Shown here: piece by piece, positions 23,175 through 23,820 of the stretch
Numbering within the stretch: position 1 is the first letter of the stretch
Layout: the number at the start of each line of letters is the position of its first letter
Source: a virus
Direction: 5' to 3' (one strand)
DNA: 64,000 nucleotides
Virus record (IMG/VR): IMGVR_UViG_3300045012_000181
Span: 1 to 64,000 of that record
Made by a program: the position numbers and the translations under genes
The notes under the pieces: model-generated
Databases searched by the model: none
Told to the model about the DNA's origin: nothing
What the model saw: the letters and a program-made list of their open reading frames with translations, nothing else

Positions 23175-23820
23175 AGAATTTCTGGGCCGTAGAATCGCAC
23201 GAGGGTATCCAGGTTGCTCGGCACCATCAGGCGCTTCCTTATCGTTGTAACCGCTCTCAGTCCGAAGCCGCTGCTACGCAGCGTAAAAGTCACCAACCAA
23301 GCCACAAGGGCCGGGATTTACAGTTTTTTACGTCGCGCAGCGACGGCCCCGAGGGGGCCCGCTGGTAACACGCCCGCATGAATAAAACATCCGTCGTCAA
23401 GTGCCAAGCGGACTCCCGGGAGGGCTCCAGTTACGGAGAATGCCCGTTCATCCTTCGTGGCAAACATCCCCCGCGGTGCCAAACGGACCGGGTGAATCCA
23501 ACAGAGGCTTCGTAGGCCTCTGCCGTGTTGCTTATAGGTGGCCCATCTGGCACTACGGGAATGCAACAAGGGACTTCCACGCGAAAAAGGAGGCCCGGAG
23601 GCCAGCTTAGACGCATTAAACTACCCCAGCTACCCCGCATCTGGCGGGGCGGTGTTTCAACAATGGAACCGCCTAGTGGCCCAGTTCATCGCCACGGAAG
23701 CACCGGATTCTTGCGAATCAAATGCCGGGCCCAGAAGGGCCCACCCAAGACGATGCGTCAACTGCGACCCCAATGTTTCTGCGGCCCAGGCTCGTTCAGA
23801 CGCTATAAGGGCGTCTGTGA
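23175..23820 (-). ncRNA. large structured ncRNA B (unclassified, about 610-640 nt)
   Basis: About 680-nt gap with only implausible ORFs. End-closing helix 23777-23789 / 23182-23194 (12 of 13 pairs) plus many hairpins and long-range helices. Strand inferred from flanking genes. Confidence 0.7.

Follow-up and report, generated by a model that had tools for sequence, protein, structure and literature searches.

The locus examined here raises a simple question, namely what is encoded in a 684-nt stretch of viral DNA that holds no gene, in a region where almost all genes lie on one strand. The DNA belongs to a 125.6-kb virus record from IMG/VR with an estimated completeness of 82%; its first 64 kb are called the window throughout, and the minus strand carries almost all of the genes from roughly 2 kb to 54 kb. 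The gap extends from 23143 to 23826 and is read on the minus strand, in the sense of the neighbouring genes. A preliminary description, made from the letters alone, had proposed that it encodes an independent large structured RNA (RNA B), alongside a second candidate (RNA A) in a gap nearby. Functions in RNA repair, translation and anti-defence are abundant in this phage region (Ro60/Y RNA, RtcB, peptide deformylase, amidoligases), and the surroundings of RNA B are auxiliary or devoted to host takeover, not structural. The features of the locus are as follows:

14073-15167, minus strand: class-II glutamine amidotransferase, around the RNA module
15913-17451 and 25597-26781, minus strand: two phiEco32-type COOH-NH2 ligases, around the RNA module
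18001-18645, minus strand: peptide deformylase, around the RNA module
21013-21651, minus strand: mini-HisRS-like protein, an accessory gene
21898-22149, minus strand: 83-aa ORF, an accessory gene
22150-22827, minus strand: RNA A, the second gap (678 nt), directly after the 104-aa ORF
22828-23142, minus strand: 104-aa mini-GNAT gene with a good AGGAGG site, its start bounding the RNA B gap
23827-24360, minus strand: GNAT acetyltransferase of 177 aa (Pfam PF00583), its stop bounding the RNA B gap on the 5' side
24870-25265, minus strand: GGACT enzyme, an accessory gene

The ligases, the amidotransferase and the deformylase that surround the RNA module would together make up a predicted phage amidoligase system for peptide or metabolite modification.

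Relatives of the locus proved to be few. The 104-aa protein has six homologues in a set of 5.8 billion proteins (46-61% identity), and a profile scan of JGI metagenome contigs yielded three loci, on contigs of 12.1 kb (L002), 12.4 kb (L004) and 1.1 kb (L003). The comparative set for RNA B therefore comprised three full-length copies (the window, L002:5330-5965 and L004:5345-5965) and one partial copy in L003. Elsewhere the searches were empty: blastn against 50,697 phage records found no relative of RNA B, IMG/VR held no related loci when searched by the GNAT, the 104-aa protein, the mini-HisRS, the A1 profile or the ligase profile, and the A1 profile found no relative in GTDB genomes. DNA patterns built from the invariant blocks of RNA B gave 0 matches in IMG/VR and GTDB. 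A looser pattern brought up eight IMG/VR loci, all of which were discarded as chance, since neither nhmmer nor the cassette proteins matched any of them. Searches of the Atlas and Pfam with the conserved neighbours (130 aa, 267 aa and others) returned nothing usable. Within the 125-kb genome itself, the RNA B HMM found a single copy and no second match.

The full-length copies of RNA B share 57-64% of aligned nucleotides, compared with 55-61% for the mini-GNAT gene, so that the conservation of RNA B equals that of the protein genes beside it. The gene order common to the window, L002 and L004 runs ligase, 130-aa gene, RNA B, mini-GNAT, RNA A, and then genes for 76, 267 and 219 aa. The order RNA B - mini-GNAT - RNA A is kept in all four loci while the flanking genes vary. 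Because the GNAT at 23827-24360, the GGACT enzyme, the 83-aa ORF and the mini-HisRS are missing in L002 and L004, which carry other ORFs instead, a duplicated unit of GNAT and RNA plus a HisRS cassette is not conserved; the conserved unit is RNA B - mini-GNAT - RNA A, and the four missing genes are accessory insertions. Functional coupling of the upstream GNAT to the RNA, or of the HisRS to the RNA, was also considered and rejected on account of the absence of the upstream GNAT, the GGACT enzyme and the mini-HisRS from these two contigs.

The preliminary description had called the short and overlapping ORFs in the gap unnatural. Stops interrupt all six frames (1-11 per frame in each homologue), and comparison with the homologues revealed no conserved reading frame or peptide on either strand. 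Substitutions lack three-base periodicity (75/87/82 and 82/78/98), and most indel lengths are not multiples of three. The sole long tblastn match came from an antisense ORF at 23525-23956 (44% over 91 aa in L002). This ORF was rejected as a conserved gene, with one in-frame stop in L002 and two plus a frameshift in L004, and the match reflects nucleotide conservation only.

The minus strand of the gap folds instead into an unusually stable structure of -305 kcal/mol, with a z-score of -5.39 against dinucleotide shuffles. The corresponding values were -3.08 for the plus strand and -1.36 for a coding control, the 640 nt just upstream, and the homologues in L002 and L004 reached -7.66 and -6.64 against their own shuffles.

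The covariation is strong. The RNAalifold consensus of the window, L002 and L004 contains 181 pairs, with standard pairs in 92.5% of cells. Changes on both sides of the pair are seen in 51 of them, compared with 22.4 ± 3.5 in column shuffles (0 of 500 reached 51) and 9-10 when the partners were slid by 1-3 columns. Since the consensus structure was derived from the same alignment, a non-circular test was run in which the single-sequence MFE structure of each copy was applied to the other two. This gave pairing in 72-77% of cells and 49-54 compensatory cells, versus 37-48% and 16-29, respectively, after sliding. The paired columns hold 82 G.U cells and 8 A.C cells, an excess that shows selection on an RNA transcribed in the sense of the genes. 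The architecture of RNA B is kept by compensatory mutation in relatives that share less than 65% of their bases, and the helices richest in two-sided changes are P1 (4), the side-domain stem (5), H7 (6), H10 (3) and H14 (7). These and the remaining elements of the molecule are placed as follows:

23797-23817, minus strand: 5' hairpin CAGACGC/GCGUCUG, 10 nt after the GNAT stop codon
23182-23789, minus strand: RNA B body of 608 nt, closed by helix P1 (from the RNAalifold consensus and covariation)
23768-23789, minus strand: 5' strand of P1/P1b (CUGGGCCGCAGAA-ACAUUGGGG), pairing with 23182-23204, with five two-sided pairs across P1 and P1b
23182-23204, minus strand: 3' strand of P1/P1b, pairing with 23768-23789
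23764-59 with 23216-10, minus strand: 6-bp helix that closes the molecule together with P1/P1b
23687-23755, minus strand: 5' side domain; stem 23755-45/23697-87 has five two-sided pairs and the next helix three
23658-23683, minus strand: 5' strand of H7, a 26-bp long-range helix with 23219-23247; six two-sided pairs, 93.6% of cells paired
23653-23641/23260-23250, minus strand: H8, the next helix after H7
23219-23260, minus strand: 3' strands of H7 and H8 (GACUGAGAGCGGUUAC...), one of the most conserved stretches, kept in L003 too
23610-23636, minus strand: 5' strands of H9 and H10 (GGGGUAGCUGG ... UAAUGCGUC), pairing with 23354-23374; H10 has three two-sided and four one-sided changes
23583-64 with 23399-75, minus strand: H13/H14, leading to the central domain; seven two-sided pairs in H14
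23400-23563, minus strand: variable central domain, poorly alignable, with indels of 12-15 nt and insertions found only in the window
23261-23353, minus strand: conserved 3' junction core, the best conserved part, with hairpins at 23347-32, 23315-23297 and 23282-70
23143-23181, minus strand: A/U-rich tail (AAAUUCUUUGUUUUCAAUU) and the mini-GNAT Shine-Dalgarno site AGGAGG, between the P1 end and the mini-GNAT start

RNA B is a long, nearly coaxial series of long-range helices that leads inward from P1, a 13-bp helix uniting its two ends. The 5' side domain holds an invariant GGGCCC-UUCU-GGGCCC hairpin and a variable one, whose loop is GCAA in the window and contains GCAA in L002. In the 3' junction core, the hairpin GCUGC-GUA-GCAGC (23282-70) is invariant, and the core hairpins are joined by conserved A/U-rich strands (GUAAAAA ... 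UUUUAC) that are able to pair with each other.

This comparative structure confirms part of the pairing first drawn from the single sequence and redraws the rest. On re-reading, every complementary segment that had been listed for RNA B was found in place. The closing helix (23777-89/23182-94) has four pairs with two-sided changes, the GGGCCC/GGGCCC hairpin is invariant across relatives, the position of the GAUUC-GCAA-GAAUC hairpin covaries, and the 5' hairpin at 23797-817 is replaced by a hairpin of other sequence at the same place in L002 and L004. This last element may protect the 5' end or, alternatively, belong to the upstream gene as its 3' hairpin. The long-range helix that had been proposed between GACGCAU and AUGCGUC gives way to two others: AUGCGUC (23616-23610) pairs with GGCGUGU (23374-23368), with three two-sided and four one-sided changes, and GACGCAU (23759-23753) lies in the helix 23755-23745/23697-23687. 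Likewise, a supposed local hairpin GGCGGU/ACCGCC is displaced by H7 and H8, both of which carry more covariation, and another, CAGAGGC/GCCUCUG, lies inside a window-only insertion of the variable domain and has no comparative support.

No terminator or sigma-70 promoter was recognised around RNA B, it has no twin identical boxes, and the search for pseudoknots left a single 5-bp candidate whose one compensatory change is insufficient. Between the P1 end and the mini-GNAT Shine-Dalgarno site lies a U-rich motif, UUUGUUUUCAA (UUUAGUUUCAA in L004), present in three of the four loci (window 23143-23181, L003 405-425, L004 about 5966-5985), which could be a putative processing or protein-binding site.

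The partial copy in L003 has features of its own. Its 3' half matches the family HMM (nhmmer E 1.8e-14, model positions 420-625), with hairpins of different sequence, as read, at the first two positions of the 3' core. The 5' part is condensed and gave no reliable alignment, and the 5' side domain appears, as read, to be absent. Directly 5' of this shortened RNA B, ending about 25 nt before it, is a tRNA gene (1-70; Rfam 55.7 bits) that is cut at the contig end and whose anticodon reads UAU (AUA/Ile). The 125-kb record to which the window belongs has no tRNA genes.

None of the catalogued RNA families accounts for RNA B. A cmscan of the whole window against Rfam 15 (4227 families) gave no match at the gathering score; at E<=10, the interval 22500-24500 drew only a chance miRNA match of 19 bits, and at E<=1 on L002-L004 only the L003 tRNA was matched. 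ARAGORN found nothing in the RNA B region, and ARAGORN and Rfam gave no match there to tRNA, tmRNA, RNase P RNA, 6S or Y RNA. The covariance models of GOLLD (RF01998), ROOL (RF03087) and OLE (RF01071) also failed to match RNA B, even at E<=10, and the searchable papers on large phage RNAs contain no description of it. At more than 500 nt, non-coding, with covarying helices and conserved unpaired nucleotides at its junctions, RNA B belongs to the descriptive class of large ornate ncRNAs. It is an uncatalogued RNA family of about 610-640 nt, of a known kind: large ornate phage RNA with function unproven.

Comparison with the established members of this class is instructive. ROOL and GOLLD, likewise from phages, are of comparable length and often lie next to tRNAs (PMC12286853). 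GOLLD RNA in particular resembles RNA B, being phage- or prophage-borne, 600-800 nt long, and built of many long-range helices and conserved junction strands, with no function assigned (PMC12286853). It has a universally conserved 3' region, a variable 5' or central part and sometimes a direct linkage to tRNA (PMC12286853); in RNA B, too, a conserved 3' region stands beside a variable 5' and central part, and the L003 copy is linked to a tRNA. RNA B differs in lacking a covariance-model match to GOLLD, in having a companion RNA and the mini-GNAT, and in being known only from four metagenomic loci. ROOL is likewise a phage-associated ornate RNA of about 600 nt, which has no known protein partner and often lies near tRNA islands (PMC12286853). 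Here again RNA B gives no model match and has a different gene context, and in contrast to the several defined pseudoknots of ROOL, none is established in RNA B. OLE RNA is similar in size (about 600 nt) and ornateness, and its gene is also flanked by small-protein genes, those of its dedicated Oap partners, so that OLE with the Oap proteins serves as a model for the proposed pairing of RNA B with the mini-GNAT. However, OLE resides in the chromosomes of extremophilic Firmicutes and not in phages, its model does not match RNA B, and the proteins that it partners with, which are membrane or RNA-binding, have no relation to GNAT. What sets RNA B apart from the known large ornate phage RNAs is the presence of a second large RNA, unrelated to it, on the other side of a mini-GNAT gene.

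That companion, RNA A, is a genuine conserved structured RNA (z -6.10), with 170 consensus pairs in the window, L002 and L004, 71 of them with two-sided changes, and it is unrelated to RNA B in both sequence and layout. Alignment is poor over the 3' third of the L002 copy. Its HMM matches neither RNA B nor the rest of the genome, in agreement with the earlier remark that the two RNAs share no obvious primary-sequence similarity beyond their start, and a common architecture, for which a test had been suggested, was rejected: the HMMs do not cross-match and the helix layouts differ. A similar start had been noted for the two RNAs; the shared GAAWTTCAC occurs three times in the window versus one expected, a count reached by 11 of 100 shuffles, and it is only loosely kept in relatives. 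Because RNA B closes on itself and its HMM has no match to RNA A, it is an RNA independent of its companion. With strong covariation and no conserved peptide on either strand, the original view of an independent large structured RNA is upheld.

The 104-aa protein between them is, from moderate-confidence modelling and weak similarity, probably a truncated GNAT-like protein. Pfam gave no match to it, and its AF2 model has a pLDDT of 72.6. The top Foldseek matches were all GNAT enzymes, although weak (E about 0.02) and limited to 46-50 columns in the C-terminal half of the fold, and BLASTP against the upstream GNAT gave E 0.002 over 41 residues. The family has an invariant N-terminal CC motif (F..CC) and an invariant, very basic C-terminal block, KFKKVFTFTNP..G..VTLWAKKL; the last 40 residues include 9-10 K/R and 0-1 D/E. 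L004 has an additional 93-aa ORF, together with a spacer, between the mini-GNAT and RNA A.

Taking these observations together, RNA B is most likely a stable, trans-acting ornate RNA of the GOLLD and ROOL kind, possibly partnered with the mini-GNAT, its function being putative. More specifically, we place a probability of about 0.6 on a reading in which the gene gives rise to a large structured ncRNA that is co-transcribed with its neighbours, trimmed, stable and active in trans through its shape, most likely with the mini-GNAT as partner. Co-transcription is suggested by the lack of a recognisable promoter or terminator of its own, and RNA B would thus be made within a polycistronic early or auxiliary transcript. 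Trimming may occur at the single-stranded A/U-rich flanks, and in L003 the 5' cut could be supplied by tRNA processing. The molecule, protected by its 5' hairpin and its closed ends, would then accumulate as a stable trans-acting RNA, and during infection it may serve as a scaffold or decoy. The adjacent basic mini-GNAT would be the most likely partner, through putative binding, and RNA A may take part as well; second in likelihood would be an RNA-only assembly of the ROOL or GOLLD type.

Such an assembly, in which RNA B forms a protein-free homo-oligomeric cage or ring like those of ROOL (an octamer) or GOLLD (a 14-mer) and the mini-GNAT is a mere neighbour, appears unlikely but deserves consideration. 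RNA B is of the same size class and phage origin, it adjoins a tRNA in L003, a variable domain lies beside its conserved 3' region, and the neighbours other than the mini-GNAT are variable. However, similarity to the ROOL and GOLLD models is absent even at the most permissive threshold used, and no palindromic or self-complementary apical loop is conserved in RNA B, its invariant loops being UUCU and GUA. The unvarying succession of B, mini-GNAT and A across four diverged loci would also be left to explain.

A bolder form of that partnership, which we consider rather improbable, would have RNA B, the mini-GNAT and RNA A constitute one three-part ribonucleoprotein machine of soil phages, with the two RNAs of about 650 nt scaffolding or guiding a truncated acyltransferase, or being its substrates. 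The best intermolecular pairing between RNA B and RNA A is a weak, G.U-rich stretch of 7 bp. If true, such a machine would be an RNA-dependent device for acyl or aminoacyl transfer, or for sequestration, in host takeover, and it would have no described counterpart. Few large, intricately folded RNAs of unassigned function are on record, and those that have been solved (OLE, ROOL and GOLLD) gave unexpected architecture. RNA B adds a new family with strong comparative support, from four loci only, all metagenomic. The cassette also offers an unusual experimental handle: a single tiny, conserved protein gene is flanked on each side by a large RNA, the two being unrelated. The whole is less than 1.7 kb long and clonable.

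It is doubtful that RNA B acts instead in cis, as a giant 5' leader governing the translation or stability of the mini-GNAT mRNA in the manner of a riboswitch-like sensor or protein-binding operator. Its position would suit this role, with RNA B ending 30-40 nt upstream of the mini-GNAT start in 4/4 loci and no terminator between them. At about 610 nt and 181 pairs, however, it would be several-fold larger than any known riboswitch or leader, and would serve a gene of 100 aa. The closed structure does not include the Shine-Dalgarno site, and no conserved pairing covers it; a small hairpin that includes AGGAGG in the window is not kept in L003 or L004. No Rfam cis-regulatory family was matched, and RNA A is of the same character despite lying downstream of the mini-GNAT gene.

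The occurrence of structured RNA on either side of a small ORF also recalls the group I and II introns that bear ORFs, and one could imagine a self-splicing intron, a mobile ribozyme, or one giant RNA of which RNA B and RNA A are the halves, the mini-GNAT ORF lying in a loop. We regard this as very improbable. Group I, group II and small-ribozyme models gave no match, and split exons are lacking, each flanking ORF being complete and unrelated to the other. The supposed halves are each self-closed and show no better complementarity than the 7-bp stretch described above, and in L004 they are further separated by the extra ORF and spacer.

It is hardly credible, either, that the gap is an element acting at the DNA level, that it encodes an origin primer RNA of the ColE1 RNA II type, or that a spacer folds this way by chance: the stretch is indeed large and gene-free, and pre-primer RNAs are structured and about 550 nt long, but the 82:8 ratio of G.U to A.C and the compensatory changes show selection on RNA and not DNA, the genome has one copy of RNA B, the cumulative GC skew declines evenly across 23 kb and does not turn until about 53-54 kb, and a chance fold is ruled out by the consensus covariation and the non-circular MFE test. 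The skew minimum itself, far from RNA B, coincides with the switch of gene strand from minus to plus, and the turn at 53000-55000 is likely to mark an origin or terminus, or a point of divergent transcription.
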